Origin: Candidatus Curtissbacteria bacterium
Lineage (GTDB): Bacteria > Patescibacteriota > Microgenomatia > Curtissbacterales > GWA2-41-24
Assembly: GCA_024654445.1 (NCBI GenBank)
Contig: JANLHP010000017.1
Coordinates: forward strand, 144,524-208,523
Length of the DNA stretch: 64,000 nt
Direction of reading: 5' to 3'
Below the pieces are notes generated by a model, which was not told the DNA's origin, searched no databases, and saw nothing but the letters and a program-made list of their open reading frames with translations. The position numbers were made by a program, and so were the translations under genes. Positions 9,455-64,000 of the stretch are shown in pieces; the stretch's first letter is position 1, and the number at the start of each line of letters is the position of its first letter.

Positions 9455-9832
9455 TTATTTCAAATGTTCTTTTATCCAGTCAGCGATTTCTTCAATCGTA
9501 GGTTTTTTGTTTTCGACCCAAAGAGCGAAGATAACGATCTCTTTGTTTGTCGCCTTAAAGCTTTTGCCGTTTAGTAACAAAAACTCAATCATCGAAATCG
9601 TTGCGGTTCTTTTATTGCCGTCTACAAATACATGATTTAGAAGTAAGGAATGAACAAGAGCTGCTGCTTTTAGGACTAGGTTTGGATAAAGATCTTTCCC
9701 CCCAAAGCTTGCTCGTGATCTTAAGACCGCAGATTCTAAAAGGCCTAGATCGCGAAGCCCTTGTAAACCACCGGTTGCCTCGACTAATTCAAAATGGATT
9801 TGGATAATATTTTGTGGCGTTAAAAACTTCAC
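9455..9832 (-). CDS. doc: Doc (death-on-curing) family toxin, Fic fold
   Basis: Motif HVFVDGNKRTA (Fic/Doc HxFxDGNKR). Matches the Doc pattern LLESA..R...FGG...YP......AAL. Overlaps the upstream gene by 4 bp. Confidence 0.8.
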   Translation of the reverse strand: MKFLTPQNIIQIHFELVEATGGLQGLRDLGLLESAVLRSRASFGGKDLYPNLVLKAAALVHSLLLNHVFVDGNKRTATISMIEFLLLNGKSFKATNKEIVIFALWVENKKPTIEEIADWIKEHLK

Positions 9833-10216: not shown

Positions 10217-10876
10217 CTATTCAACAAATTTAAAGGTTGAGAGCATTTGGTCGAAGATTTTTTCCGATTCAGCAGAGTACTCTATCTCTGAACCAATACC
10301 ACTTGAAAGAATGAATTCATAAACATTACCTTTTTGAGAAGAAAATACGTGTTTACTTGGTGTTTCTCCCAATGTCCCGACAAATACGAGCGATCTAGGC
10401 AATGGCGATTGAGTTTGTTTGAGGTTTGCTTTAAGAATTGAGATCACTGGTGTTTTTCCATCGACCCCAGTCTGTGTGAATACAGTCTCTAGAAATTCTT
10501 CCAGAGGAATATTCTGAGGGTTCGGATAAACATTTATAAGTATATTCTTGCTATTTACTGTTTCATCACTTGGATTATTAAAACTAACGATGTTCGATTT
10601 TTCCGAAAAGTTTGTCGGGCTAATTACTTTAAGGTCTGGGGGGTATTTCAAAGAAAAATTATATTCGGTATTTGTATATGTTATCCAGTTGGCAGGAACG
10701 TCCATAACTACATCTACGGGTACTGCTGATTTATCAGTAGGTTGTTCGTGGGCTTTTCGGATCAGGTTAGAGTTGACGTAGATAGTTGCTGCTGTGATTA
10801 GCAGAATCACGGCAAGGCCGATCATTACTGGGGCAGGAATGAAGCCCCGCCTACCGGCGGGCAAGACTTTTCTCAT
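10217..10876 (-). CDS. hypothetical secreted/membrane-anchored protein
   Basis: 219-aa ORF with N-terminal TM (IGLAVILLITAATIYV). No family recognised. Confidence 0.4.
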   Translation of the reverse strand: MRKVLPAGRRGFIPAPVMIGLAVILLITAATIYVNSNLIRKAHEQPTDKSAVPVDVVMDVPANWITYTNTEYNFSLKYPPDLKVISPTNFSEKSNIVSFNNPSDETVNSKNILINVYPNPQNIPLEEFLETVFTQTGVDGKTPVISILKANLKQTQSPLPRSLVFVGTLGETPSKHVFSSQKGNVYEFILSSGIGSEIEYSAESEKIFDQMLSTFKFVE

Positions 10877-21540: not shown

Positions 21541-22622
21541 CGTTCACGCTGACATTTTTAGCTGCCTTTTTAGTTTCTTTAATCTTAACCCCAATTACAA
21601 TTGTGCTCGCTAAAAAATTTAAATTCGTTGATGACCCGAAGCTTAGAAAGCATCCGGCTCTTATTCATAAAGTTGTAACCGCAAGAGCTGGTGGTGTGCC
21701 AATTTTTCTTGCTTTTTTGTTGGTGAGCATTCTTTTAGTTGAACCGAGTAAAAAATTAGCGGGGATCCTGCTTGGAGGTTGGATTCTTGTTTTGGTCGGT
21801 TTAATTGACGATAAAGCGGAATTGCCGAGTATCGTAAGACTTCTTTTCCAATTTCTAGCAGCGCTGGTTGTTGTTGCCAGCGGTGTCGGTATCGCTTTTA
21901 TCCCAAACCCGGTTTCAGCGCTACTCGGTCAGGGTTACGATGTTATTAGACTCGATACTATTCGTTTGTCTTTTGAGTTTTTTGGTAATCATTCACTTTT
22001 ATTGCTCGCTGATCTTTTTGCGCTTTTTTGGATCGTTTGGGTAATCAACATGGTTAATTTTTCGAGTGGCGTCGATGGACAAATGCCGGGAATAGTAATT
22101 GTTACTCTAATGGTAATTTTTGTCGCGTCACTCCGATTTTATCCTCATGATCCGAGCCAGACCGTTGTGAGTCAACTGGCTTTAATTGGAGCTGGATCAG
22201 CGCTTGGATTTTTAATTTTTAATTTTTATCCTGCAAAAATTTTCCCCGGCGATTCCGGCTCTTATTTTCTGGGGTTTTTAGTCGCGGTCGTTGCAATCCT
22301 TTCGGGAGCAAAAGTGGGGACTGCGATTTTAGTAATGGCCATCCCGCTTATTGACGGTGTATTTACTATTATAAGAAGATTAGTAAGTGGTAAGTCTCCT
22401 TTTCTTGGAGACAGGAAACATTTACACCACAGGTTGATAGAGTTGGGTTGGTCGCAGAGAAGAGTAGCATTGTTTTATTGGTTTCTGTGTGCTATTTTAG
22501 GTGCGGCTGCATTGCAACTTGCCTCTATTGAAAAACTTTTTGCAGCAGTAGTTGTCGCTGTTATTGTCTTAGGAGGACTAGTTTGGCTAAATATGAATTT
22601 ACCACAAAAGGCCCGCAGATAA
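21537..22622 (+). CDS. polyprenyl-phosphate N-acetylhexosamine-1-phosphate transferase (GT4 MraY/WecA family)
   Basis: Motifs NMVNFSSGVDGQ (NxxNxxDGxDG) and PGDSGSYFLGF. About 10-11 TM helices. Confidence 0.75.
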   Translation: MTFTLTFLAAFLVSLILTPITIVLAKKFKFVDDPKLRKHPALIHKVVTARAGGVPIFLAFLLVSILLVEPSKKLAGILLGGWILVLVGLIDDKAELPSIVRLLFQFLAALVVVASGVGIAFIPNPVSALLGQGYDVIRLDTIRLSFEFFGNHSLLLLADLFALFWIVWVINMVNFSSGVDGQMPGIVIVTLMVIFVASLRFYPHDPSQTVVSQLALIGAGSALGFLIFNFYPAKIFPGDSGSYFLGFLVAVVAILSGAKVGTAILVMAIPLIDGVFTIIRRLVSGKSPFLGDRKHLHHRLIELGWSQRRVALFYWFLCAILGAAALQLASIEKLFAAVVVAVIVLGGLVWLNMNLPQKARR

Positions 22623-23593
22623 TCTGGTTGCCCTTTTGGATTTTTGTTAGCGCACGCCCGCGTCAATGGCTTAAAAATTTAGCACTTTTTGCTCCACTTG
22701 TTTTTGAAGGCGTTTTTTTTGACCCCATTAAATTTTGGCTCGTCGTTTTAGGCTTTTTTATTTTTTCGCTTGCAACTTCTTCCATATATATAATCAACGA
22801 TGTAATTGACGTCGAAAAAGACAGGGCTCATCCATTTAAGAGGAAACGCCCAATTGCAGCCGGAAGGATACATCCTAACGTTGCTCTTATTATTGCGATT
22901 TTGGGACTTGCGCTGGCGATATTTGTTTCGAGCCGTTTTTCGCCATTTTTTACTTTGGCGCTTTCCGCCTACGCAATTTTGCAGATACTTTACTCGCTAT
23001 TTTTAAGGTCGATTATTCTAATCGACGTTATGGCGATTGCGTCGGGATTTTTGCTAAGAGTTTTCGCCGGAGCGGTTTTGATCGACGCGCACGTTACTGT
23101 TTGGTTTATTTTGACGGTTGCAAGTCTGGCGCTATTTTTGGCTATCGGAAAAAGAAGGTCGGAACGGACTCTTTTGATGGGTTCGGAGGAGAAGTCGCTT
23201 GCGACAAGATCTATTCTTCTTCATTATCCCGAGTCACTTCTGGATTCGTTGACAGTAATGTTTGCAACGGCTACGTGGTTTTCTTATACGATGTTTACTT
23301 TTTTGCAGCCGCCGCCAGGTTCCGGCGCACAGGTTTTGGTGTTGTTTGGAGATTATCTGCCTAGGACGTTTTTGGCTTCTAAATGGCTGATGGTGACTGT
23401 GCCTTTTGTTATTTATGGGGTAATGAGATACATGTACGTCATTCACGAAAAAAAAGAAGGGGAATCACCGGAGCGAGTATTATTGTCTGATATTCCTTTA
23501 CTTTCGACAGTGCTGTTCTGGATCGTAATCGTCTTTTTTGTAATCTACGGCGGAGAATTCTTACCTCAAAAGTTAATTCAGTATTTGCAGTAA
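22583..23593 (+). CDS. UbiA-family prenyltransferase, decaprenyl-phosphate phosphoribosyltransferase (DPPR synthase)-like
   Basis: RPRQWLKNLALFAPL and NDVIDVEKDRAHPFKRKRPIAAG (UbiA NDxxDxxxD motif in a DPPRS-like context). Start uncertain (ATG 22583 overlaps the upstream gene by 40 nt). Confidence 0.65.
   Translation: MAKYEFTTKGPQIIWLPFWIFVSARPRQWLKNLALFAPLVFEGVFFDPIKFWLVVLGFFIFSLATSSIYIINDVIDVEKDRAHPFKRKRPIAAGRIHPNVALIIAILGLALAIFVSSRFSPFFTLALSAYAILQILYSLFLRSIILIDVMAIASGFLLRVFAGAVLIDAHVTVWFILTVASLALFLAIGKRRSERTLLMGSEEKSLATRSILLHYPESLLDSLTVMFATATWFSYTMFTFLQPPPGSGAQVLVLFGDYLPRTFLASKWLMVTVPFVIYGVMRYMYVIHEKKEGESPERVLLSDIPLLSTVLFWIVIVFFVIYGGEFLPQKLIQYLQ
23549..23593. repeat. direct repeat DR1 (3' end of UbiA-family gene)
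   Basis: ggcggagaattcttacctcaaaagttaattcagtatttgcagtaa. Repeated at 24245-24289 (about 38/45 identical). Both encode GEFLPQKL(I/L)QYLQ*. Confidence 0.7.
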
Positions 23594-23596
23594 TTA

Positions 23597-24208
23597 TTGT
23601 TTATCAAATTCATGAAAAAAGGTTTCGCTCCTGTAGTTTTGCTCTTATGCGTTTTGTTTGTCGTTGTTACGGTTTTTGGAACTCACAAAATTATGGAATG
23701 GCAGCAACCCAAAGATCAATCAATCTCACAAGATGATATTCAAAATACTTCTGCCTGGACAACACAAGAGACTGTTTTAGGTTTTTCGATAACATTTCCC
23801 AATACTTGGCGTTTAGAGGCAGGTGACTCAAAGACCGTTGTTTTGCGAAATTACTTTGACGCGAATCTTGCTGAATCAGACTTTCAGGGTCCTATCCTTT
23901 TAAAACCGGACAAAATATCCATCACAATTGGTCAATATGACGAATCACTTGAGGAAGACCTATCACTTTTAGATTGGCTCGAGAAGGAGAACCGATATAG
24001 TAGCGCTCAACAAGATGATCCAACTAAGGTAGAACAAAAAACAATAGCAGGTAATCCTGCTTTAGTTCTGTTCCATAGTAATCCTGATGCACCTTTTTAC
24101 GTTTTTAACAATCAAAAACGTGTTTATTTTGCTTACTTTAGTCCTTCTAACTCAGACTATACTCCTCTAGTTATTCCAATACTTGATTCAATTAAATTCT
24201 TACAGTAA
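23597..24208 (+). CDS. hypothetical secreted protein inside a direct-repeat-flanked insertion
   Basis: 203-aa ORF with N-terminal TM/signal (VVLLLCVLFVVVTVFG). Lies between DR1 and DR2. Confidence 0.45.
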   Translation: MFIKFMKKGFAPVVLLLCVLFVVVTVFGTHKIMEWQQPKDQSISQDDIQNTSAWTTQETVLGFSITFPNTWRLEAGDSKTVVLRNYFDANLAESDFQGPILLKPDKISITIGQYDESLEEDLSLLDWLEKENRYSSAQQDDPTKVEQKTIAGNPALVLFHSNPDAPFYVFNNQKRVYFAYFSPSNSDYTPLVIPILDSIKFLQ

Positions 24209-24244
24209 GGGGACTTTTCTATGTACAGCTATCTTGATGGGGGC

Positions 24245-24289
24245 GGCGGGGAATTTTTACCTCAAAAGTTACTTCAGTATCTTCAGTAG
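24245..24289. repeat. direct repeat DR2 (relic copy of UbiA-gene 3' end)
   Basis: ggcggggaatttttacctcaaaagttacttcagtatcttcagtag. Matches DR1. Confidence 0.7.
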
Positions 24290-24290
24290 T

Positions 24291-24602
24291 TTATCTATGA
24301 GATTCGACTATTTTTCTCCCTATTTCTCCTGATTGATAAGCTTTCAATAGGTTATTTCTTCCCCTAAATCCCATTCTGTCTAAGGCCGCGAGTAGTTCTC
24401 TTTCTTCTTTCCGTGGGTTTTGTGTTGTTAAGGAAACAGTTAGCGGTACAGACACTTCCGCATGTCTATTTATTCTGGTGCGTAACTGAAATGGTAGGTC
24501 AAACTCGCTGCCTAACTGTTTACCAAACTTAACCATTGCTGGTCTTGCAAGATGTCTAAGAAGAAGATTGTCGTTATTTATGACTGTTGATGGCATGAAC
24601 AT
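24291..24602 (-). CDS. hypothetical protein
   Basis: 103-aa ORF, no family recognised. Lies 8 bp downstream of the 24611..25189 gene on the same strand. Confidence 0.35.
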   Translation of the reverse strand: MFMPSTVINNDNLLLRHLARPAMVKFGKQLGSEFDLPFQLRTRINRHAEVSVPLTVSLTTQNPRKEERELLAALDRMGFRGRNNLLKAYQSGEIGRKIVESHR

Positions 24603-24610
24603 ACTATCAT

Positions 24611-25189
24611 CTACATGATTGTAGTCTGGAGTCCAATGATGCGGATTTTGCAGCCTTTTTCTTTTATGTATTGAATTGCTGCTTCAAGGTCGGTTTCTGT
24701 TACTATTCCTGTTAACGTTTGTCGGTAACTGGCTGTCGTCGAATCGACCGCTAGTTTGGTTGCTGTTTCCGATTCGACATTGACAATTTCCGTCCCTAAA
24801 AGTACTGTAGCATCGATACTATCCATACCTATTCCAAAATATCCTGCTACCTTATTTTTTCTCAGATCTTCTACAACCCTGTAATCAAAATAAATGCTGT
24901 TAGAGTCTCTATCTACCCATGATCGAGCTCCTGGTGGAGCACCCACTACTACCTTGCCTTTAATTTTTTCTAAAAAGAAAGGGTGTAGGCTTGCTAGGTT
25001 GATTGCTGTCTCTGTGTCATTAAGATCTGGGACAACCTTTACTTGGTCTACACTCAATTCTGGTGCGTCTGGGTAGTGCCTTCGAAGGTTGGTATTTACC
25101 CAGGATACGATTCGTGCAATATCTGCCTGATCCTCGGGTGCGAGCAAAATTTCTTGCGGCTGACTAGGGCCTGCTTCTTGATCTTTCAT
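24611..25189 (-). CDS. hypothetical protein (soluble)
   Basis: 192-aa ORF (VVVGAPPGARSWVDRDSNSIYFDYR...GYFGIGMDSIDATVLLG). No family recognised. Confidence 0.4.
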   Translation of the reverse strand: MKDQEAGPSQPQEILLAPEDQADIARIVSWVNTNLRRHYPDAPELSVDQVKVVPDLNDTETAINLASLHPFFLEKIKGKVVVGAPPGARSWVDRDSNSIYFDYRVVEDLRKNKVAGYFGIGMDSIDATVLLGTEIVNVESETATKLAVDSTTASYRQTLTGIVTETDLEAAIQYIKEKGCKIRIIGLQTTIM

Positions 25190-25239
25190 AATCTCGGATT
25201 ATACTCCTCTCCCTGTGTGTTTGTAAACTATGGGTCGGA

Positions 25240-25686
25240 TTATTGAGCTTTGATCTTGAAGCTAACGTTTGAGGAAGCGGAGGCTTCTTCGGAGAGAAGG
25301 CTGAGAGTTGTGGATGTTTGAGGTGAAAGAGTGGCAGTTATGTCTGGATTTTTGAAGTCCTGGCCGAAAAAGACTTTGGCCTCCCCTGCTGTTTTTTCGA
25401 TTGAGTAAGTTTTAGTCTCCTCTGTCGGGTTATTTAGGATCAAAATACCCAAGAATGCTTGGCTCTCTCCGAATTTCGTGGCTGTTAGCTTGTAGGTTTC
25501 GCCCTCCTGGGAAAAGCTTACGTTCGGGAATTTGTCTATCTGGGGCACGATAAGGTAGTGTGAAGCGCTTTTTACGCCCGCAACTTGGGCGAATTTCGAG
25601 GCAAAATAGAAGGGGAAGGCCAAAAGCGCTAAAAGCAGGACTACGGCTGAGAAGTTGGCAAAGGTCCGAAATAGTGAGTGTTTCAT
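25240..25686 (-). CDS. hypothetical secreted protein
   Basis: 148-aa ORF with signal peptide/TM (AVVLLLALLAFPFYFA). A 4-bp overlap with the upstream gene suggests an operon. Confidence 0.4.
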   Translation of the reverse strand: MKHSLFRTFANFSAVVLLLALLAFPFYFASKFAQVAGVKSASHYLIVPQIDKFPNVSFSQEGETYKLTATKFGESQAFLGILILNNPTEETKTYSIEKTAGEAKVFFGQDFKNPDITATLSPQTSTTLSLLSEEASASSNVSFKIKAQ

Positions 25687-53021: not shown

Positions 53022-53852
53022 TTAAACACCTTTTTGCAGACCTTTAGGTAGATACTTATTAAGCTGTCCAGCCCCAGTGATAACATACTGCTGGATTGCG
53101 CCAATTATAGTAAAAGTATTCCAGTAAAGCGAAAGGCCGAAGGGAAAGCCGTAAGAGAAAAAGGCAATTAAAAGCGGCATGATAAAAACCATCTGGGTCT
53201 GCATTTGAGCCATTGAGTCTTCGAAACCTTGCTTTTGTTCTTTCTTGGATTCCTTTTTTCCACTTGTTTGGACTTTTGGCGGAGCCATCATTAATGATTG
53301 GACAAGCTGCAGTAGACCGGTTACGACTGGAACCAGCAGGATGAGAACGCCGACTTGCTGCCATTCGTTGGGCCTTATCCCTAAATTAAGGCCCAAAAAT
53401 GATGTTTCTGGAATTTTGTCGAGGTGAAGTGAGGGAAAATAGAGCTTACTATTTATATTTGTTAGGAAGTCTGCGCTACTAAACTGAACAACGTGTTGGA
53501 GCACGTTATAAAGAGCTAAAAATACGGGTATCTGTAAAAGGAGAGGCAAACAACCAGCTAAGGGGTTTACGCCGTGCTCTTTGTAAAGTTTGGATACTTC
53601 TTGCTGGTGCCTTGCTTTGTCGTGACCATGTTGCTCTTTTATGCGCGAAAGGTGAGGCTTCAGGGCTGCCATCTTTTGTGTGCTTCTTAGTTGAGCAGTA
53701 GTCAATGGCCACATAATCATGCGGATTATTATGCTCAAGAGAATAATTGCAAAACCAAGCGCGCCGGGAATGCCTGCGCCCTCAAGCACTTTATATATTG
53801 CAATGAGTATGTTTAGTATTGGGTTGGTTAAAAAAAGTTCAAATGGGTTCAT
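53022..53852 (-). CDS. yidC: membrane protein insertase YidC (short form)
   Basis: PLAGCLPLLLQIPVFLALY and the 5-TM Oxa1 core. 276 aa. Confidence 0.85.
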   Translation of the reverse strand: MNPFELFLTNPILNILIAIYKVLEGAGIPGALGFAIILLSIIIRMIMWPLTTAQLRSTQKMAALKPHLSRIKEQHGHDKARHQQEVSKLYKEHGVNPLAGCLPLLLQIPVFLALYNVLQHVVQFSSADFLTNINSKLYFPSLHLDKIPETSFLGLNLGIRPNEWQQVGVLILLVPVVTGLLQLVQSLMMAPPKVQTSGKKESKKEQKQGFEDSMAQMQTQMVFIMPLLIAFFSYGFPFGLSLYWNTFTIIGAIQQYVITGAGQLNKYLPKGLQKGV

Positions 53853-54061
53853 TAAACGGGGTCAATGTAAGGTCTTTTTGAAAGTGGATGACAACTTAAG
53901 ATTCTCATGATTGCTTTCGCGCCTCCCCTTAAAAGGCCATATTTTTCTATAGCTTCAAGCGCGTACTGTGAACAAGTTGGGGAGTACCTACATGTTGCAA
54001 CTACGTTTCTGGTTAGTCCTTGGTAAAGGAAGAAAGAAATTTTAAATAAGTTAATGGTCAT
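53852..54061 (-). CDS. yidD: membrane protein insertion efficiency factor YidD
   Basis: [36 protein letters not shown], the canonical YidD sequence. Confidence 0.85.
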
Positions 54062-54366
54062 TTTAAAAGGTCTTTGAGTGCTTCTTTAACTTTTTCAGTT
54101 TTTTGCTCTGAAATATTATTTTTTACTATTACAGTCAGTTCGCAATTCTTCAAACCTAACTCTTTAATCGCTTCTGTCGTTATTCTTCTTATCCTGTTTC
54201 TGTCGACTGCCTTTTTGGCGGTTTTTTTTGAAACAACAACTGCTGCCTTAAAAACTTCCTGATTCTTGTGCAGTACTATCGTAAAGTCGTTATTTGCTCT
54301 TTTGGTTACCGAGCTATTTAACTTTTTGCCAAAAGGTAATTTTAAGCGATTTTTCGAAGGCAACAT
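54058..54366 (-). CDS. rnpA: ribonuclease P protein component
   Basis: [13 protein letters not shown]...[16 protein letters not shown] matches RnpA (RNR motif). Position between rpmH and yidD. The ORF track extends to 54384. Confidence 0.8.
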
Positions 54367-54388
54367 TTTTTCGAATGATACCATTCTC

Positions 54389-54423
54389 GAATTTCTAATT
54401 TCTAAATTATTTAGGTCAATTAG
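54389..54423. repeat. conserved intergenic motif GAATTTCTAATTTCTAAATT + TTAGGTCAATTAG (copy 4)
   Basis: Between rpmH and rnpA. Confidence 0.5.
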
Positions 54424-54439
54424 GCTCTTTTTAAATTAC

Positions 54440-54577
54440 CTAAGGTGTCAGCTTTTTGCGGCCTTTTGCTCTTCTTCTTTTGAGAACTGCGCGTCCATCT
54501 GTTGTCCTCATACGAATTCTAAAACCGTGGGTTTTGGCCTTTTTTCTTTTTTTCGGTTGATAAGTTCTTTTTGGCAT
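54440..54577 (-). CDS. rpmH: 50S ribosomal protein L34
   Basis: Not in the ORF track (under 60 aa). Hand translation of the minus strand gives [45 protein letters not shown]. Confidence 0.9.
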
Positions 54578-55238
54578 AAGAGAGCTTGTATTTTCGTTTC
54601 ACTCAAATATAAGAGAGCTTGTATTCTAAATTTCATTAGAATATAGAGGTAGAGTACTAAAAAAGCGATGATATATCAATAATTAACAAATTTGACACCT
54701 ACTTTGAATAGATTTACTACATGCTCACTATGCGTGCGGAAGTTAATACAGAAGGTGCGGCTCAAGAGCAAGTTCGAGCACAAGAACGGCTTCGGTTGGC
54801 ACTAGAAGTGGAATCAGTTGCGAACGGAATAGGTGCTTTTATACTTCAACCAACCCAGGATAATCATGACAAACTTTTAGAGAGTATCGAAGAACTGCCG
54901 CCAACACTGAAGAGTTACCTTGATGTGTCAACTCCTTCAGAGCCAACTTCTTAACAGATTTTTCAGGAATAACAAACAAGCATACAGAGTAAGCTCTGTG
55001 GATTTTAGCCTCAAGTTTTGGAGTTTATCAACATAAATTTTGGGTCCTTGACAATTGTGGAAAATTTCTGCAATGATGGATTTCAGCTCTAAAAATTCAA
55101 GAGGTGTCCTACAATTTCTGCCAAATTGTATGACCCTTTGTAAGATCTTCTTTCAGTCAGATCTCTTCGCAAAGAACGCGAAAAATAAGCTAGCCTGCTT
55201 AGAGCTAAATTTAATCATACTTAGGTGTAAGTTTTATT
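54578..55238. other. dnaA upstream region: AT-rich stretch, direct repeats and degenerate DnaA boxes
   Basis: ataagagagcttgtatt twice (54576, 54609). DnaA-box-like tgtggattt (54996), tttatcaac (55026) and tgtggaaaa (55046). Confidence 0.4.
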
Positions 55239-56597
55239 ATGAACGGCCAAAAAGTTTGGGCTAGTATATTGTCTGGCGTAAAATCGCAAGTTTCTTCTTC
55301 TACATTTAAGACCTGGTTTTCAGGATCGTATGTAATGGACTTTCGAGAAGAGGAATCGAGGCGGCTTCTGGTAGTAGGTGTTAAGAACAACTTCCTTAAA
55401 GAGCAAGTTGAAACCAGATACCAAACAGTAATCAATGACATCATCCGCAAAAAAGGATTTTCCGACTGCGAAGTTACTTTTGTCGTTTCTGAGCAAACAG
55501 ATTCGAGTTCACAAATTTCCGATGCTCCTCTTTTTTCCGGCGAAGCGCCTACTTTTATTAATAGCTTCAAAAAGATAGACAACTTAAACCCTCTTCACAC
55601 TTTTGATAACTTTGTCGTTGGGGCCTCTAACAACTTGGCATTTTTGGCCTTCAAGCAAGTTTCTGAAAATCCTGGCACATCTTATAATCCTCTTTTTGTT
55701 TATGGCGCAACGGGCGTAGGCAAAACTCATCTTTTGCAATCATGTGGTAACGAAATACTAAACAAAATTCCCGATGCCAAAGTTTTGTACGCAAGCGCGG
55801 AAAAATTCACTAATGACTACATAGAATCGCTGAACAACAGGACCCAATCTCACTTTAGGCATAAATACCGAAACGTCGACGTTTTGTTGGTTGACGACGT
55901 TCAATTTTTAGCAGGCAAAGAAAGCACTCAAGATGAATTTTTCTATACATTTAACGAACTTTATCTTGCGGGTAAACAAATTGTTCTTGCTAGCGATCAC
56001 CACCCTAGAGATCTTGGAAAGTTAAAAGACAGACTTGTGAGTAGGTTTTTGGGAGGAATGGCTGTTGATATTTCACGTCCTGATTTGGAACTGCGGGTTG
56101 CGATACTGAAGGCAAAATGCAAAGAGAAAAATGTTGTTTTGGGAGATGGCGTTCTCAACTTTATCGCAGATTCTTCACAGGGTGGGGTAAGAGAGCTTGA
56201 AGGTCTTCTGCTTCAGGTGTTGTCTCTGTCTAAATTAACTTCCGGGGGAATAACTCTCGATGAAATTAAAAGGGCAATTGAAAGAAACAAAAGGCCGAGC
56301 GTGGCTCCTCCAAGTCCTGGGAAAATAATCGATTCGGTTTCAAGACACTTTAGGGTTCCGAGAGAAGAATTGTGCGGGCCAAAAAGGAAGGCGAATATTG
56401 TTTTTGCGAGACAAATTTTGATGTTTATTTTAAGAGAGGATCTTGGGCTTGCCTTGGAGGCAATCGGAGAGCTCGTTGGAGGGCGTGACCATTCTACAAT
56501 TATTTACGGCGTTGAAAGGGTAAATAAGCTTATCGGCGAAAATCAAAACACGAGAGACGAAGTTGCTAGAATCCGCGCCAATTTTCAACAAAATTAA
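55239..56597 (+). CDS. dnaA: chromosomal replication initiator DnaA
   Basis: GATGVGKTHLLQ (Walker A), LLVDDVQFLAGK (Walker B) and a C-terminal DNA-binding domain ...FARQILMFILRED. 452 aa. Confidence 0.95.
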   Translation: MNGQKVWASILSGVKSQVSSSTFKTWFSGSYVMDFREEESRRLLVVGVKNNFLKEQVETRYQTVINDIIRKKGFSDCEVTFVVSEQTDSSSQISDAPLFSGEAPTFINSFKKIDNLNPLHTFDNFVVGASNNLAFLAFKQVSENPGTSYNPLFVYGATGVGKTHLLQSCGNEILNKIPDAKVLYASAEKFTNDYIESLNNRTQSHFRHKYRNVDVLLVDDVQFLAGKESTQDEFFYTFNELYLAGKQIVLASDHHPRDLGKLKDRLVSRFLGGMAVDISRPDLELRVAILKAKCKEKNVVLGDGVLNFIADSSQGGVRELEGLLLQVLSLSKLTSGGITLDEIKRAIERNKRPSVAPPSPGKIIDSVSRHFRVPREELCGPKRKANIVFARQILMFILREDLGLALEAIGELVGGRDHSTIIYGVERVNKLIGENQNTRDEVARIRANFQQN

Positions 56598-56898
56598 CTT
56601 AGTTTTCCACAATATAAAAATTGTTTTTAACAATAATGTTTTTGTTTTAAACAAATGTTTAAACAACTCTTTACGCTGCTTGTTGAGCTTATTCGTCAAG
56701 ATATAAACAATGTTATTATTGCTACTACTTTTATATAAATACCTTTTAATAGGGCACTTGTTGAAAACGTGTGGATTATTTATAATCGCTCGCAGGCGCT
56801 CGCTTTTATATGCTTGCGAGTACATACTTGTGAGCCCTGGTGAGCAAGTATATAATCGGTTCACTTCTGCCCTAACTACAAATTGAGGAGAATATACG
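56598..56898. other. putative oriC (dnaA-dnaN intergenic) with DnaA-box-like sites and an AT-rich unwinding region
   Basis: ttttccaca at 56604 (TTATCCACA, 1 mismatch). tgtggatta at 56771 (TGTGGATAA, 1 mismatch). A 60-nt stretch over 85% AT at 56615-56675. Confidence 0.55.
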
Positions 56899-58038
56899 TT
56901 GAAGTTTAAGATTGAACAGGGCCAACTGACCAAAACATTACTTTCTGTTAACAAATCTCTTCTTTCGAAGGTAAATCTTCCTATTCTTTCTAATGTTTTG
57001 TTTTCTGTTTCCGGCAACAAGCTGGAAGTTCTTTCAACAAACCTCGAAACAGCAACCAAGGTAGTTGTTGATTGTACCGGTGAAGCTGACGGAAAAACGA
57101 CTCTTCCGGGCAAAACCCTTCTGGAGTTTGTTTCACAGTTGCCTGAGGGGGAGATACTTTTGGAGAAACTTGGTGAAGAGGTGATTGTTTCTACAAAGGG
57201 ATACAACGCAAGGTTTGCGACTCTCGCGGTCGAGGATTTTCCGGCAATTCCGAAGATAGAAAAAGGAAAGCATATAAAGCTCGACCCGAAGGATTTTATG
57301 AGGGCTGTCTCGAGGGTGGCGATGAGTGCCGCACAAGACGAAGGAAGGCCCATTTTAACCGGAGTCCTTTGTGAATTTGAGAAAAAAACCCTTTCTTGTG
57401 TTGCGACAGATGGTTACAGGTTAAGTTTCCAATCCGTGCCTTATGAGGGGGATATTCCCTCCTCGCTTAAAATTGTCGTCCCTTCAAAGTCTTTAATTGA
57501 AGCAGCCAAAATTGTCTCCGAGCTTTCTAGCGAAATAGGAGAAAACAAGATTGAGCTTTTGATAGCTGATGGTTTGAATCAGGTCAATTTTAAGATTGGA
57601 AATGTGGAGTTTACTTCCAGACTCATCGAAGGAGAATTTCCTAATTGGCAGAAAATTATCCCCAGCACGTTTGCTTCGAAGGCTAGGGTTTCCAAAGAGG
57701 ACTTTATTAAGGTGATTAGAATCGCGTCAATTTTTGCGCGGGACTCAGGAAACATAATCCGCTTGCAGCTTTTGGCAAATGGCGCAAAAGGTGCAGTACT
57801 CAAGGTTTTTGCAAACAATGTGCAAGTAGGGTCGAATGAAGCCGAAGCCGAGGTTGAGCTTACCGGCAAAGGTGGGGAAATCGCATTTAATTTTAAGTAT
57901 CTGCTGGAGATGCTTTCTTCTATTGAATCTTCTGATGTCGAATTTGAGATGATAGAAAGCTTAAATCCTGGAAGGCTGACGGTTCCCGAAGACAAGAGTT
58001 ACTTTCATATCGTGATGCCAGTTAGATTGCAGACATAA
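56899..58038 (+). CDS. dnaN: DNA polymerase III beta sliding clamp
   Basis: MKFKIEQGQLTKTLLSVNKSL..., three-domain clamp, 379 aa. TTG start preceded by gaggag. Confidence 0.9.
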   Translation: MKFKIEQGQLTKTLLSVNKSLLSKVNLPILSNVLFSVSGNKLEVLSTNLETATKVVVDCTGEADGKTTLPGKTLLEFVSQLPEGEILLEKLGEEVIVSTKGYNARFATLAVEDFPAIPKIEKGKHIKLDPKDFMRAVSRVAMSAAQDEGRPILTGVLCEFEKKTLSCVATDGYRLSFQSVPYEGDIPSSLKIVVPSKSLIEAAKIVSELSSEIGENKIELLIADGLNQVNFKIGNVEFTSRLIEGEFPNWQKIIPSTFASKARVSKEDFIKVIRIASIFARDSGNIIRLQLLANGAKGAVLKVFANNVQVGSNEAEAEVELTGKGGEIAFNFKYLLEMLSSIESSDVEFEMIESLNPGRLTVPEDKSYFHIVMPVRLQT

Positions 58039-58803: not shown

Positions 58804-59384
58804 AGGTCTTCATGGCTTGGTTCTGTTCTTAATTCCGGATGTTGTTGCAGAAAAGTCGCGAGGTTAGTGGTCGGAAAGTGCCATATTTCTACAATTAGAC
58901 TACTGATAGGATTACCGAAAACTATTACTCCTTTTGAGCCCCAGAAGTGACCGGGGGCTGCAAATCCGTGTTGGCCGTAGATGAGTGCCTCCGGTTGTCC
59001 GAATTTTGCGATGTATCCATTTAAAGATCCTTTTTCTTTGGCGATTACCGGCTCTTCAATGAGCTGAACCTTGTCGTTTTCTATCTCGACTGTTGTTTGC
59101 CTGTTTTCGTTAGTTGTCGGATAAACGTAGATTGTTTTGCCGTTCTGCTGCTCGATTTTAATTGGTTCGCCGACTGCTTGTCTTAGCTCTTCTTCAGTAG
59201 TTTTGCCGGGGGTTACTTTGCCGAGCCATTTTACTTCGTCGTCCGAAGGTTTTCCCAGCAGGTTAAATAAAAAGACTGATGTTATGAACAAAGATGCTAA
59301 ACCAAGCAGTAAGAGCGGAGACTCTTTTTTTAGAAAAATTGAAATTCTATTTAGTGAGCTTTCGGTCATATTAAAATTCCACAC
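58800..59384 (-). CDS. hypothetical membrane-anchored protein
   Basis: 194-aa ORF with an N-terminal TM (LLLLGLASLFITSVFLFNLL). Directly downstream of the giant gene. Possible alternative start ATG 59369. Confidence 0.4.
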   Translation of the reverse strand: MWNFNMTESSLNRISIFLKKESPLLLLGLASLFITSVFLFNLLGKPSDDEVKWLGKVTPGKTTEEELRQAVGEPIKIEQQNGKTIYVYPTTNENRQTTVEIENDKVQLIEEPVIAKEKGSLNGYIAKFGQPEALIYGQHGFAAPGHFWGSKGVIVFGNPISSLIVEIWHFPTTNLATFLQQHPELRTEPSHEDL

Positions 59385-62300
59385 CCCCCATTAGACTATG
59401 CGTGAAATTGTAATGTTTCGGGTAAGTTGAAGGGTAATTTATAGGACCGCACGTTCTGGAGTTGTGTGTCTTCCAGACGACGTGAATTGCGATTGCCTCC
59501 GCGAAATCTTCGGCTTGGCTTTTTTGAGCGGGGTAACTACATATATAGCCCTCTGTCCAAGGAGATTCGTTTAGAAAGTTTTGATACGCTTGCAGTCCGT
59601 AGCATTGGACGATGTGACCGGATTCGTGAGCCAATACGTAAAGGGTGTTGTCCGGGTTTCCGACGCCTAGGTTTGAGATTGCAATGTGGTTGGGGCAAGT
59701 AACAAAGTTGAAGCCGTCCGAATGGTCTCTATGAAGTATTACAGTCCCTTGTGAGCAGACAAGATTTAGGTAAGCGGGGGCGCGAGAAAGTGCAGTAATT
59801 GCCTCCATTTCCAGCGCTTTTTCGCTGTCTGTCCAAGGACCTTGAAAAGTGAAGCAGTTGATAGCAGCTGGCGAACCTACTCTGACTACAGTGGTCGCAA
59901 AGTCGGCAATAGGGTCTCCGCCTTCGGGCACGGCTGTTACCTTAATTGTATTTAAGATTACAGAGTCGTTGTAGCTTTCGTTAACTCCAATTGTAATTTG
60001 CGCTGTACAGCTTTCGTTTGGCGCGAGAGTGTCAGGGCAAGCCACCTGTGGGTTTGTGGGTGCAATAGCTTTACCCAAAACCTTTGTTTCGTCCAAATTT
60101 TGGATATTGTTTAATTTTACCTCTTTTGCCGTAAGGGTGATGGTGAATGTGATTTGTTGAGTTTGGCCTGGTGGTTGGTTCGAGATGACGTCGGGTTGGG
60201 CTGTTTTTGTAAGCGTAAAAAAGGTATTATCTCCAGCGATTGGCCCTTTTATATAACTGTTGTTGCTGGAAAATGCTGTCGATGTGACTATTCCCATCAG
60301 GATTCCGCCGATTCCGATTGCGCCTAATCCCCCGAATACTGAGATTGCCAGGAAAGGAGAGGAAACCGAAAGACTGCCCGCAAGCAGTGAGCTCGCGCCC
60401 GCGCTTAAGCCTCCGAAAAGTCCGCTTGCCGCGCCGGCGAAGCCTCCCCAGACAGCAGAACTTGCACCAGTGATGCCACTGCCTATGGATGAGAAGAGCC
60501 CGCCAATGGAGCCCCCGATCCCGTTAATGGCGCTTGTTATTGGTGCCCATGGGCGCGCAACAAAAGCCAGGGTTTTACCAGGGTTAAGAAAACCAATGGC
60601 TGCACCAATTGTTCCGCCGATGGCTCCCCCAATGAGCGCTCCGGGTATACCTCCAACGAAGAATCCTACGGTTGCTCCTATTGTTGCGCCTGCCGCAATC
60701 CCGGCGAGAAGCCCAAGCGCTTTAATGCCCATGCTTATGAGTAAGCCGGCAAGAAGAGCGCCCGCTACCATTGCTGCTTTTTTGATTAGGTTAATTAGTT
60801 TCGGCGCCGCGAGTAATGCCAGGCCTAATGGGTTAGCGGCAAAAGCAAGGCGGCCCAACTTCGCTATTTTCGTGATGGATTTGGCGGTACTTACGATACC
60901 CTTGCCCGTGTGGAATATGGACTTTGCCTGGTCCAAGCCGGAATAACTTGTTCCCAGAGAATAGACTAGCGAGGTGAACATCCTTTTGGGAGAAGCTTGA
61001 GTGCTCAAACTTACTGGTACAAAAATCCCGGGGCTTTGCCTGAAGATTGCGCGGTACGAATACCACATTGCGGCAGAAGATTGGACTAGAGTTCTGTGGT
61101 TGGGAAGCCCTCGCGCCCAACTTCTAAAGATGGCTGTTATTTTTGGCCTTTTGAGGGAAAGTTTTTGAGCTTCTTTAAGTGTTGTTAAATTTTTCCTGGC
61201 AAGGTTAAGCTTTTTTCTGTCTCGAAGACTCAACGAAGGGCGTGTTTCTAATGATTTTACTTCTCTTTCAGCTTTTTCCAGATTTGTTCTGAATCTTTGC
61301 TGATTAAATGTGAGAAGCGCGTAAGTTGCCTCTTTTTGTCCATTTTCTGTTCCCAGTCTTGCACCTGCTACCGCATTTTTAATGCCTGACACAAAAGTCA
61401 GATTTTTTGGCCGGATACCTGTTAGGCCAAGCGCGCTTATTTCATCGGGTGCCAGCGGTTTTAGGCCTAGATCTTTTGCTAACTCTCCCGCGATTTCTTT
61501 GAAAGGAAGAGTGCTTGGAGCTCTTGCTCCGGCGGTCGCGGTTCGCGCGATCGCCCTATTGTGGGCTACTTCTTTGATCCGCGCGAGTTGTTCTAAATTT
61601 GGCAAGTTGCGGGATTCAATAGATGGTTTTGTGGAACTCGCGATTTGCGCCTGATAATTTCCAAGATACGTTCCTAGATCTAGTTCCAGATCTACTTGTC
61701 GCGTTTGTGTTGTTAGGGGGGCTTGGCTTTGGATGACCTCTTCGACTGCGAGCTCTATTTTTTCAGGAATTTGAGAATTAGGGGCTGAGAGTTTCGCGAC
61801 TTTTTCAAGATTTCCTAAAACTGCAACTTGTTCCAGGTTCAGTGAAGGGTTCGTGGCTACGACTGTGGTTTCTTTTTCGATCATATCGTAAAGTTTTTCT
61901 TCCGGGATTTTTACTTGTTGGGTTTGAGGATGAACAAGTATGGTTTGGGTTACGCTATCAGCAACGACCTGGTTAATCTGTGCAGCATCCTGAATGGTCG
62001 CGAGGTTTTCAAAGATTTCCCTTGCGCTTTCCTGGCTAATTTCTGTGGCAACTTTTAATAACTCCTCGTGGTTTAAATTGGTGACGCCAATCGTAGGCAA
62101 CAGGGCGACAATTTTTTCTTGGAGGGCCCCGTTTAATTCAGGCTTGATTATTTCGGTGTGGTGTTTGAGTAATGGCTCAATTTCTTCTAGTTCTGCTAAA
62201 ACGCCGAGTGCCCCGATACGTTTGTCGTGCGCGAAAGGGGTAAGATGAGGGACTTGTGATTCAAGGTGATTTTCGCCCTCAACTTTTTTAATGGCTTCTT

Positions 62301-62520
62301 GGATTTTTTCCGGATCGTTCACGCTTTCGACTGCTTGGGTTCCGAGAATGTTTTCAAGCTGAACCATAATCGACTGGCGATTTATTTCGACGTCGCCAAA
62401 TTGTGCCTTGAGTTCTTCATCGGTGGGGAATCTGGTACCAGAACGAAGGCAGTTCAGGAATAAAAGAGTGGCTTCTTTCAGAACTTCTTGGTAAGACTTT
62501 GCGGTTATGTCGGCGGGCAT
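59371..62520 (-). CDS. giant (1049 aa) protein: ~520-aa N-terminal soluble region, glycine-zipper-rich polytopic membrane core, C-terminal HExxH zincin-like (DUF4157-like) domain
   Basis: No signal peptide. Residues ~540-760 are Gly/Ala-rich TM helices (GIAAGATIGATVGFFVGGIPGALIGGAIGGTIGAAIG...). C-terminus has YVLAHESGHIVQ, matching the DUF4157 LAHELxHVxQ signature. Confidence 0.6.
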   Translation of the reverse strand: MPADITAKSYQEVLKEATLLFLNCLRSGTRFPTDEELKAQFGDVEINRQSIMVQLENILGTQAVESVNDPEKIQEAIKKVEGENHLESQVPHLTPFAHDKRIGALGVLAELEEIEPLLKHHTEIIKPELNGALQEKIVALLPTIGVTNLNHEELLKVATEISQESAREIFENLATIQDAAQINQVVADSVTQTILVHPQTQQVKIPEEKLYDMIEKETTVVATNPSLNLEQVAVLGNLEKVAKLSAPNSQIPEKIELAVEEVIQSQAPLTTQTRQVDLELDLGTYLGNYQAQIASSTKPSIESRNLPNLEQLARIKEVAHNRAIARTATAGARAPSTLPFKEIAGELAKDLGLKPLAPDEISALGLTGIRPKNLTFVSGIKNAVAGARLGTENGQKEATYALLTFNQQRFRTNLEKAEREVKSLETRPSLSLRDRKKLNLARKNLTTLKEAQKLSLKRPKITAIFRSWARGLPNHRTLVQSSAAMWYSYRAIFRQSPGIFVPVSLSTQASPKRMFTSLVYSLGTSYSGLDQAKSIFHTGKGIVSTAKSITKIAKLGRLAFAANPLGLALLAAPKLINLIKKAAMVAGALLAGLLISMGIKALGLLAGIAAGATIGATVGFFVGGIPGALIGGAIGGTIGAAIGFLNPGKTLAFVARPWAPITSAINGIGGSIGGLFSSIGSGITGASSAVWGGFAGAASGLFGGLSAGASSLLAGSLSVSSPFLAISVFGGLGAIGIGGILMGIVTSTAFSSNNSYIKGPIAGDNTFFTLTKTAQPDVISNQPPGQTQQITFTITLTAKEVKLNNIQNLDETKVLGKAIAPTNPQVACPDTLAPNESCTAQITIGVNESYNDSVILNTIKVTAVPEGGDPIADFATTVVRVGSPAAINCFTFQGPWTDSEKALEMEAITALSRAPAYLNLVCSQGTVILHRDHSDGFNFVTCPNHIAISNLGVGNPDNTLYVLAHESGHIVQCYGLQAYQNFLNESPWTEGYICSYPAQKSQAEDFAEAIAIHVVWKTHNSRTCGPINYPSTYPKHYNFTHSLMGGVEF

Positions 62521-62796
62521 GGCTGGTTTAACTCTAATATAGCATTTGGGGAGGTATCACAAGTACGAAAAGTATCACAAGTATCAGAAGATTCAGAAAA
62601 CTCAGCCAAATCGGCATATCAGAAAGTCTGAAACTCGGATGTGATTTAAGGTGGCATCCTTGAGTCATCGAAAGGTGCCCTACCTTAAATCTTAAAAGTT
62701 CAAGGATGAGACCTTAATACAAGGATCTCACCTTGAACACAGACATTCAGGTTACCTGATACCCTGACCTTCTGAGTATTCAGAGTATTCTGAAAG
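62521..62796. repeat. repeat-rich intergenic region between VirB4-like gene and giant gene
   Basis: Direct repeats gtatcacaagta x2, caaggatgagacctt / caaggatctcacctt and ctgagtattcagagtattctga. Confidence 0.4.
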
Positions 62797-64000
62797 TTAC
62801 GGTAGATCTGGCTTGGGCTGAGTGGGAGCTTGAGCGAATTGATCAACTACTTGTTGAGACTTTTTTCGCATTTCCAGAAGCTCTTCCGGTTTTGTGGTAA
62901 CGAGATAGTGTTCGTCTTCTGAAGCGATTACTCTTATCGCGACGTGATTCGCGCCCGCGAAAAAAATTCCTTCACCGATATCAGCCGCGAGGAGTAAATG
63001 CTTTTCGCCTTCTGACAAATAAAAGGTGTCAGCGACCTTTTCGATCGCGGCTGGCGACTGTTTAAGGAGAATTTGGATGGAAGAGTTTGTAACTATTGCC
63101 CTGCCGTAATCTGTGTTTAAGAAATCTTCGACGTCTTGAGTGATGGTGGTCAAGCCAAGGAAATACTTTCTGGCGCGTTTGGCGATGCTGTACATAAACG
63201 TCGCGCTGTCGGGATACTGCATCATGTACCAGGCCTCATCGACGATGAGCAAGCGTTTCCTAATGTCGTTTTTGATTCTCGTCCAAATGAAATCAAGAAT
63301 GAGATACATTGCAATCGGTCGTAGTTCATCTTCGAGGTCTTTAATTGAAAAAACGGTGAACGTGTTTTTAAGGTCGATATTACTTTGCTGGTTAAATATT
63401 CCCAAAAGCGAGCCTTTGACGAATTTTTCGAGCCTGTCAGCGAGACCTTTGGCGGCTGTTTCTTCCATGCCTAGAAGTACTTTGTAGAGATCTTCCATCA
63501 GGGGCGGCTCGTTCTTTTGAGTGGCTGGGTCTGGCGTTATGCCCTTTGATTTATATGTCGCGACGAGCGCTTTATCTAGAATCGCGTCTTCCGTTGGCGA
63601 AAGTTCGCCCATGACAACTTTGAGGAAACCGTGGAGAGTAAGGATTTTAAGGCCGAGTTCGTTTTCGCCTTCTTCGTAAACGCCAGAAAGATCAAAGGGG
63701 TTAATTTTCGCGGGTGAACTGAAGCTGAAGGAGATGTATTCACCGCCAATTGCTTCGCAGAGGTTTTTATATTCCTGCTCGGGGTCGATAACGATTACTT
63801 CGGTCCCGAACATTAGGGATCTTAAGGCTTCGAGTTTGACGAGATAAGATTTTCCGGCGCCGGATTTGGCAAAGACTACGGAATTGGCGTTTTCTTGAGA
63901 GAACCTGTCGAAAATTACGAGCGATCCATTGTGTTCATTGATGCCGTACATAATGCCCGAGTTTGAGGTAAGAGCGGATGAAATGAATGGGAAAGTGGTC
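62797..64000 (-). CDS. VirB4/TrbE/CagE-family type IV secretion ATPase, C-terminal part (gene continues beyond window end)
   Basis: Walker A VVFAKSGAGKSYLVK. VIVIDPEQEY. Walker B LLIVDEAWYMM...KRARKYFLGLTTITQDVEDF. The frame stays open past 63951 to the window edge. Confidence 0.75.
   Translation of the reverse strand, partial: TTFPFISSALTSNSGIMYGINEHNGSLVIFDRFSQENANSVVFAKSGAGKSYLVKLEALRSLMFGTEVIVIDPEQEYKNLCEAIGGEYISFSFSSPAKINPFDLSGVYEEGENELGLKILTLHGFLKVVMGELSPTEDAILDKALVATYKSKGITPDPATQKNEPPLMEDLYKVLLGMEETAAKGLADRLEKFVKGSLLGIFNQQSNIDLKNTFTVFSIKDLEDELRPIAMYLILDFIWTRIKNDIRKRLLIVDEAWYMMQYPDSATFMYSIAKRARKYFLGLTTITQDVEDFLNTDYGRAIVTNSSIQILLKQSPAAIEKVADTFYLSEGEKHLLLAADIGEGIFFAGANHVAIRVIASEDEHYLVTTKPEELLEMRKKSQQVVDQFAQAPTQPKPDLP

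Follow-up and report, generated by a model that had tools for sequence, protein, structure and literature searches.

Duplication of the UbiA 3′ End

We analysed a stretch of 64,000 nt (hereafter the window) from a Candidatus Curtissbacteria bacterium (contig JANLHP010000017.1), in which the 3′ end of a UbiA-family gene is present twice. The gene encodes a DPPR-synthase-like protein, whose best NCBIfam match is NF008977 (decaprenyl-phosphate phosphoribosyltransferase) with 214 bits, below the cutoff of 234. The protein matches exactly P0001, a protein from a metagenome-assembled genome (MAG) of Candidatus Curtissbacteria. For comparison we fetched the surroundings of UbiA relatives, 31 loci from genomes and 78 from metagenomes, and added the loci of the two closest relatives; the loci are referred to by L-numbers. 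UbiA is the last gene of an envelope operon, the members of which lie on one strand in the order PMT_2, PMT_2, a 130-aa gene, GT4 and UbiA, and this synteny is kept in L001–L015 and L022. In Curtissbacteria, UbiA is followed by convergent genes, namely p148, p179 and a gene for a PEGA/SH3 protein.

The longest direct repeat between positions 22000 and 26000 of the window is formed by the end of UbiA and a second copy downstream (copies 1 and 2 in Table 1). It is 48 nt long with 42/48 positions identical, and the two copies start 696 nt apart. In the coding part (23549–23593 and 24245–24289), 39/45 nt are identical, close to the ~38/45 estimated in a first-pass annotation of the window, whose translations also stand: copy 1 reads GGEFLPQKLIQYLQ and copy 2 reads GGEFLPQKLLQYLQ, each followed by a stop codon. 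Under a binomial model with the base composition of the window, about 9 × 10−10 direct pairs of such quality are expected by chance in 64 kb. The longest exact run shared by the two copies is 15 nt. No third copy was found in the window, either by a DNA search allowing up to 3 mismatches or by a six-frame motif search. In a diagonal identity plot, the UbiA-like similarity starts at 24244; left of copy 2 the sequence does not resemble UbiA.

Copy 1 corresponds to residues 323–336 of UbiA, beyond the conserved family profile. Because the NCBIfam profile ends at residue 323, the duplicated tail is a clade-specific extension outside the conserved core. The tail varies between lineages and is poorly conserved, and the version in the window is unique among the homologues listed. 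Nearly all of the ~120 UbiA homologues listed are 336 aa long, so the UbiA protein in the window keeps a normal full-length C-terminus. The suggestion of the first-pass annotation that this is an insertion at the 3′ end of UbiA, with an intact C-terminus regenerated, is borne out as to the site and the full-length C-terminus.

The gene p203 is the single sizeable open reading frame (ORF) between the copies. The repeat brackets p203 alone and marks the border between p203 and the genes p103 and p192. The geometry of p103 and copy 2 reproduces the tight convergence of the native UbiA/p148 junction. The first-pass annotation had spoken of a one-gene insertion, which is correct for the interval between the copies, but in comparison with relatives the insertion consists of three genes. 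None of p203, p103 and p192 has a homologue at any fetched related locus.

Copy 2 lies within a 22-codon ORF. The NCBI locus tags (03175 for p203 and 03185 for p192, in steps of 5) imply that this ORF has no tag. The counterparts of copy 2 in L041 and L052 have no start codon. Judged from the sequence, the 22-codon ORF is probably not a gene and should not be annotated as one. Copy 2 is probably the former end of a UbiA allele, that is, a scar without present function.

Several other candidate features were considered and rejected. UbiA, p203 and the 22-codon ORF share one reading frame with only TAA stops between them, the offset of 696 nt being 232 codons, and a read-through fusion of the three was considered. 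The corresponding offsets in the other lineages are 2, 2, 0 and 0 modulo 3, and the shared frame was judged to be chance. The end of p203 (..DSIKFLQ before the stop) resembles a third tail copy. However, members of the p203 family end in ..ILSTFKF.. in genomes without a nearby UbiA, so this ending is a feature of the family. A possible third remnant beside p148 (VFVNYGSDY before the stop, 25217–25246, + strand) resembles the upstream part of a UbiA tail, but its nucleotide score of 10 is not significant, being no better than background (mean 9.2). The end of this ORF overlaps the p148 stop and a promoter-like site, and it is not among the matches of the tail scan described below.

Table 1. Positions of features at the UbiA/p148 junction of the window, and dimensions of the tail repeats in other lineages.
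Feature	Position	Strand	Details
UbiA-family DPPR-synthase-like gene	22583–23593	+	336 aa; Pfam UbiA, E = 4.6e-17
Repeat copy 1	23548–23595	+	Working UbiA 3′ tip (..GGEFLPQKLIQYLQ, TAA) plus 2 nt
Whole lineage-specific islet	23594–25239		1,646 nt; three genes and scar; from comparison with 116 fetched loci
p203	23597–24208	+	203 aa from TTG; newest cargo gene
Spacer from p203 stop to copy 2	24209–24243	+	35 nt
22-codon ORF containing copy 2	24221–24289	+	Unannotated; MYSYLDGGGGEFLPQKLLQYLQ before the stop; read from the sequence
Repeat copy 2	24244–24291	+	Displaced UbiA 3′ tip (GGEFLPQKLLQYLQ, TAG) plus 2 nt
p103	24291–24602	-	Older cargo gene; stop 1 nt beyond the copy 2 stop
p192	24611–25189	-	Older cargo gene; apparently shares an operon with p103
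Sigma-70-like promoter before p192/p103	25198–25227	-	TTTACA-18-TATAAT, 11/12; consensus match only
p148	25240–25686	-	Conserved convergent neighbour, right border of the hotspot; tblastn synteny
Tail repeat, L004			22–28 nt; 1370 bp between copies; cargo: diversity-generating retroelement (DGR) target with template repeat (TR)
Tail repeat, L040/L041			~45–51 nt; 644 bp between copies; cargo: ParE/Phd pair (L041)
Tail repeat, L052			29–30 nt; 267 bp between copies; cargo: DUF2283
Tail repeat, L058			~60–75 nt; 1152 bp between copies; cargo: 331-aa gene of unknown function

An Insertion Hotspot between UbiA and p148

After dereplication, the UbiA/p148 junction was empty in ~18 lineages, held a short spacer in 4 and was occupied in at least 18. 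At the empty sites, the stop codons of UbiA and p148 lie between −20 (overlap) and +67 nt apart, and in six empty-site loci (four dereplicated lineages) the two genes overlap by 20 nt. The occupied junctions, in at least 18 lineages, hold 0.5–4 kb of extra DNA. This cargo is mostly unrelated across lineages, and only 8 lineage pairs share any tblastx match. Of the two closest relatives (82% amino acid identity), L116 has an empty site and L115 carries a different single gene there. The first-pass annotation had expected the empty site to consist of UbiA followed directly by the gene at 24291 (p103). Empty sites are indeed found in many relatives, including L116, but there UbiA is followed by p148.

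Identified cargo genes in relatives include ParE/Phd and PIN toxin–antitoxin genes, DUF2283, reverse transcriptase (RT) with bAvd, and RibD_C; orphan genes are also present. Some insertions start directly after the UbiA stop without any repeat, and many insertions carry no repeat. For example, a 652-nt RelE/RelB-like module stands exactly after the UbiA stop without tail duplication, as seen when L078:557–1210 is compared with L008:5521 (94–96% identical). In L041 (2421–3066) and L076 (6011–6561), the same ParE/Phd cassette (74% nucleotide identity) was found right after the UbiA stop, while the UbiA genes are well diverged. The homology of this cassette ends at the same nucleotide, ..TTTGTCAA, in both loci; this end abuts the p148 stop in L076 and the displaced UbiA tail in L041. 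A test for mosaic structure between L076 and L034 was only suggestive.

Oliveira et al. have described hotspots that lack mobile-element genes and are flanked by recombining core genes in 80 bacterial species (Oliveira et al. 2017, PMC5635113). The UbiA/p148 junction matches such hotspots in its pattern of occupancy: one core-gene interval, empty in some lineages and filled with unrelated cargo in others.

The orphan gene of L115 (L115:5621–5998, − strand) encodes 125 aa; at its 3′ end there is a 17-nt overlap with the UbiA stop. Parts of DGRs were also seen in the hotspot, at L004:7040–8340, L052:1310–2950 and L058:4619–6401. In L004, the C-terminal variable repeat of the target gene pairs with a TR-like repeat, with 12/18 mismatches at TR adenines, and no RT was found in the islet. 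The hotspot of L052 contains an RT and a TR-like ORF, and that of L058 contains bAvd and an RT.

Displaced Tails in Other Lineages

The last 60 nt of the UbiA gene of each locus were aligned to its own downstream DNA. Second copies of the UbiA tail were found in four further independent lineages, which makes five with the window (Table 1). In addition, a hidden Markov model (HMM) of the last 26 residues was built with the window sequence excluded, and six-frame translations of all downstream regions were scanned. Six + strand matches came out on top, each ending at a stop codon, with 36.6, 23.9, 20.6 (the window), 16.7, 9.3 and 7.5 bits. As a control, matches on the wrong strand were scored as well, and the best of them had 6.9 bits.

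The left edge of the repeat varies from 22 to ~75 nt from the stop, and the right edge is the stop codon in all five lineages. In 4/5 of the scar lineages, the displaced tail meets the next convergent gene as a native UbiA end would, either abutting the 3′ end of that gene or overlapping it. The displaced tails of L004 and L052 encode on their antisense strand the last five codons and the stop of the neighbouring gene.

A mirror scar exists on the other side of the junction. In one lineage, represented by L057 (3898–4420) and identically by L059, a second copy of the p148 3′ end lies 474 nt closer to UbiA. The two copies end in ..TVEFTIVMN and ..TVEFRISPE before the stop, are identical at 22/26 nt, and lie around a DUF2283 gene and a 76-aa gene.

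Divergence between the Two Copies

The 6 nucleotide differences between the copies in the window are four synonymous codon changes, one conservative Ile/Leu replacement and a change of TAA to TAG. We estimated how often at most one amino acid change would arise with the frame and the stop kept. The probability was 0.0014 if the changes were random, and 0.007 under an in-place duplication in which copy 1 was under purifying selection and copy 2 drifted. When the five lineages were pooled, there were 40 nucleotide differences with 12 amino acid differences, and 0/4000 simulations reached this pattern under either null (P < 1/4000). The tails had been detected at the nucleotide level, and therefore the sample has no bias towards synonymous change.

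Over the coding part, the identity of copy 2 is 87% to copy 1 and at most 73% (33/45) to the tail of any sampled relative, which indicates that the two parents were close relatives. In L041 and L004, copy 2 is more like the tails of other lineages than its own copy 1. Because the differences are mostly synonymous, the two tails look like the ends of two functional alleles joined by recombination. The simplest reading of these sequences is that copies 1 and 2 would each have terminated a functional UbiA allele, the two alleles stemming from closely related genomes and having been joined recently.

A Recombination Scar as the Favoured Explanation

We consider it fairly probable that the repeat is a recombination scar, that is, a displaced and non-functional UbiA 3′ tip in a hotspot without mobile-element genes. 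A recombination scar was the fallback of the first-pass annotation and is the reading finally favoured here. The class of event, which may be termed a 3′-tip displacement scar, is already known, and the locus is a clear example of it, not a new mobile element. The window, L004, L040/L041, L052 and L058 all have an intact anchor gene, cargo, an orphan tail in the same orientation and variable breakpoints.

The event could have proceeded as follows. The resident genome would have had the order UbiA(tail 2)-p103-p192-p148, and the donor would have been a closely related, unsampled genome with UbiA(tail 1)-p203. One crossover would have been homologous, in or upstream of UbiA. The other junction would have been non-homologous and would have fallen near 24243/24244, at the right edge of the spacer and ~45 nt short of the resident stop. 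The incoming allele would then supply the working C-terminus (copy 1) together with p203, and the resident tip (copy 2) would be shunted downstream. Such a process would be homology-facilitated illegitimate recombination (HFIR). Only events that spare both convergent genes would survive. The retention of a stub of the old tail can be explained in this way, because the 3′ ends of the neighbours abut or overlap and only junctions sparing them survive.

Several points weigh against this explanation. Neither UbiA-p103-p192-p148 nor UbiA-p203 occurs among the sampled genomes, so it is by inference that the event is given this direction and a single step. With 70–77% nucleotide identity, the lineages are too divergent for phylogenetic congruence to be judged, and an attempt to compare copy 1, copy 2 and the flanks in this way was uninformative. 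All scars lie within ~75 nt of the stop, whereas junctions placed at random should have left some longer fragments as well; the lack of long fragments would be explained only by selection and later deletion. The ParE/Phd cassette has an identical end in L041 and L076, a hint of a discrete unit and not of a random breakpoint. Finally, experimental HFIR usually couples insertion with deletion and not with duplication of the anchor. In an E. coli study, partial duplication of the homologous locus was the product of single crossovers involving recircularised molecules and not of HFIR (PMC3240628).

Searches for Mobile-Element and RNA Features

The first-pass annotation had proposed to look for an integrase or recombinase on the contig. 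No integrase, transposase, resolvase or recombinase domain was found by Pfam in the ~49 ORFs scanned across the window, and no such domain was found in the cargo ORFs examined of the scar lineages L004, L041, L052 and L058. There is no constant att core among the repeats, as the repeat length differs per lineage and only the stop-codon end is shared. The insert ends carry no attC-type inverted repeat of an integron cassette, and the scanned window ORFs include no integrase. The locus has no transposon or insertion sequence signature either: the duplication is imperfect and 48 nt long, no terminal inverted repeats were found, and no transposase was found in the scanned window ORFs. The repeat contains no dyad symmetry or fold, no terminator-like site and no Rfam match, and the region of copy 2 folds worse than its shuffles on both strands (z = +2.0 and +1.6).

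Alternative Explanations

The main rival to the recombination scar is a circular intermediate. A small circle with a short UbiA 3′ end and p203 would recombine into the chromosomal tail by a Campbell-type single crossover and duplicate the piece that it carried. Direct repeats would then flank the newest cargo, with their length set by the fragment carried, which fits the variable lengths. The shared cassette end in L041 and L076 suits such a discrete unit. Single crossovers with truncated recircularised molecules have duplicated 109–950 bp of a homologous locus (PMC3240628), and Jackson et al. invoke a circle for the displacement of Rhs tips (PMC2935791). However, the homology available here is only 22–75 nt, diverged by 12–26%, and the longest exact run in the window is the 15 nt mentioned above. 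Such a run is very short for RecA-type recombination, considering its minimal processing segments. Moreover, if the tails were identical at the time of the event, later changes in copy 2 should look random, which the simulations disfavour. An earlier event would also be needed to make the first tail-plus-cargo circle. We therefore regard the circle as unlikely, although it deserves the most weight among the alternatives.

Site-specific integration is a less probable explanation, to which we give little credence. Here the UbiA tail would serve as attL/attR for an unrecognised recombinase, or an integron-like cassette platform would stand behind the envelope operon. Insertions do recur at one place, often right after the stop (L078 versus L008, L076 versus L034), the cargo is small and without mobility genes as in cassette systems, and direct repeats flank the newest unit in five lineages. 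Against this, no recombinase domain was found in the window ORFs scanned or in the cargo examined, the repeat length is inconstant, and the tail sequence is not conserved across lineages. There is no attC-like inverted repeat or hairpin, and the fold z-scores are positive. Many insertions lack a repeat, and the mirror scar uses the tail of the other gene. The att-site or gene-cassette interpretation in the first-pass annotation fails for these reasons: the missing recombinase in the scanned ORFs, the missing fold, the variable repeat, the unconserved tail and the mirror scar. A more speculative form, in which the C-terminal extension of UbiA would be a recombination "address" and an unrecognised, possibly host-encoded system would stack small cassettes of toxin–antitoxin pairs, DGR units or secreted proteins behind the envelope operon in an integron-like manner without IntI or attC, appears to us similarly doubtful. 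Such a cassette-loading platform would have left two footprints, namely the precise placement of insertions immediately behind the stop codon and the cassette end shared by L041 and L076.

The repeat could also be an in-place duplication: break repair or faulty replication would have brought in p203 and doubled ~48 nt of the target, after which the copies diverged within this lineage. The greater similarity of copy 2 to copy 1 (39/45) than to the tails of sampled relatives (at most 33/45) is in favour of it, as both copies could then stem from this lineage. However, this explanation has a poor chance of being right, given that only one amino acid change accompanies six nucleotide differences with the stop kept (P = 0.007) and that the five pooled lineages gave P < 1/4000. 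In L041 and L004, copy 2 is nearer to the tails of other lineages, which likewise speaks against it, although a fossil of an ancestral tail could look alike.

It is very improbable that copy 2 is kept for a function, be it as a translated 22-aa peptide or as a 3′ untranslated region or terminator for p203 or p103. The frame of the ORF is intact, a weak GGGG motif is located 8 nt upstream of its ATG, and its peptide is conserved with respect to copy 1, but the L041 and L052 remnants lack a start codon, and the repeat has no terminator-like site, fold or Rfam match.

Least credible of all is an assembly chimera, in which a metagenome assembler stitched together two co-existing strains with different cargo after UbiA: the contig does come from a MAG and the site varies between strains, but the copies share at most 15 exact bases, which is below the usual assembly k-mers, no repeat path links the two arrangements because the sequence left of copy 2 is not UbiA-like, and the same architecture was found in five other assemblies from different projects.

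Comparison with Known Systems

Displacement of the C-terminal tips of Rhs genes leaves orphan 3′ ends (Jackson et al. 2009, PMC2935791). Kirchberger et al. reported that arrays of type VI secretion system (T6SS) effector and immunity genes contain orphan 3′ ends that arose by HFIR-like displacement (Kirchberger et al. 2017, PMC5361080). The UbiA locus is similar to these Rhs and T6SS cases, and to displacement in contact-dependent inhibition (CDI) systems, in that the intact gene keeps a working 3′ end and the incoming DNA brings a new 3′ end with its cargo. The former 3′ end is moved downstream, where it persists, its orientation unchanged, as an orphan of variable length. The cargo stacks with the newest unit beside the intact gene, and there is no dedicated recombinase. 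However, the anchor in the present case is no polymorphic toxin but a housekeeping envelope enzyme. The new and old tips differ by 1 aa and are orthologous, instead of being alternative toxin domains, and the orphan is only 22–75 nt long. Furthermore, the cargo is unrelated to the function of the anchor, and the convergent neighbour can also be an anchor.

HFIR has been described for bacteria that take up DNA by natural transformation (de Vries & Wackernagel 2002; Prudhomme et al. 2002, as summarised in PMC3240628). In HFIR, a long homologous anchor combined with a non-homologous junction admits foreign genes beside a conserved gene without mobile-element machinery, as proposed for the UbiA locus. 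Experimental HFIR usually deletes recipient DNA of about the size inserted, whereas a short stretch of the anchor is duplicated in the window.

The hotspots of Oliveira et al. resemble the UbiA/p148 junction in that an interval between orthologous core genes is either empty or filled with fast-changing unrelated genes, without integrase or transposase. Displaced tips of core genes were not described in that study, and the present hotspot differs in lying between abutting or overlapping convergent genes of a lineage in the Candidate Phyla Radiation (CPR).

Another class of comparison is given by the attL/attR type of boundary. Integrative elements that target the 3′ ends of genes, such as islands in tRNA and tmRNA genes and phages, carry a replacement end and leave attL and attR. 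As in those elements, the target gene stays intact through a supplied 3′ end, and the insert lies between direct repeats of that end. However, no integrase was found at the present locus, there is no constant core and no insert of the size of an element, and the repeat length differs between events.

The locus may be regarded as a readable record of gene gain in an uncultivated CPR lineage, in which displaced tips mark the borders of successive acquisitions. CPR bacteria are not cultivable or genetically tractable, so gene gain in them is known almost only from sequence. If the scar explanation is true, gene gain at this junction would proceed through host recombination between relatives and not through the enzymes of mobile elements, and short orphan gene ends could be used to order acquisition events in MAGs.

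Cargo Genes of the Window

The product of p203 is predicted to have an N-terminal hydrophobic membrane anchor and a PsbP/Mog1-like extracytoplasmic domain. An AlphaFold model, computed with the relatives as alignment, had a pLDDT of 85.5 and showed the N-terminal helix anchor and the PsbP/Mog1-like domain; its top Foldseek matches in the PDB were Apa of M. tuberculosis and PsbP. The start is likely the ATG at 23612, which gives the 198-aa form found in public databases (P0121). The first-pass annotation had called p203 a secreted protein of 203 aa, the length of the ORF from its TTG; the shorter form is likelier.

In a word-indexed search of 5.8 billion proteins, the only close match of p203 was itself. 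An exhaustive HMMER search gave 17 distant relatives of 25–42% identity, mostly of ~200 aa. None of those with available context lies beside UbiA, and no tail-like sequence was found near them. An exact-sequence look-up of p203 returned no additional contig. A PsbP_2-like gene at 10217–10876 (− strand) of the window was considered as a paralogue of p203; its product is membrane-anchored, and it is not a close relative.

The p192 protein matches only itself among the same 5.8 billion proteins, a search in which p103 was not included. For p103 and p192, Pfam, PHROGs, PADLOC and NCBIfam all gave no match. The idea that p203, p103 and p192 come from a defence system or a phage was considered and dropped, as none of the three has a PADLOC or PHROGs match. 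The p148 stop and the p192 start are separated by 50 nt, and the promoter-like site (Table 1) falls within this gap; from its sequence the p192/p103 pair seems to have its own promoter.

Other Features of the Window

The genes yidC, rnpA, dnaA (55239–56597) and dnaN (56899–58038) lie together at 53022–58038. Because these genes are clustered, the window probably includes the chromosomal replication origin region.

At 59371–63951 on the − strand, a gene for a TraG/VirB4-like P-loop ATPase (62797–63951) lies 0.3 kb from a gene for a 1049-aa protein without a Pfam match (59371–62520). The two genes are ~35 kb from the repeat and, judging by gene content, may belong to a type IV-like apparatus for transfer or uptake. 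A gene of the Fic/DOC family was also observed at 9455–9832 on the − strand.

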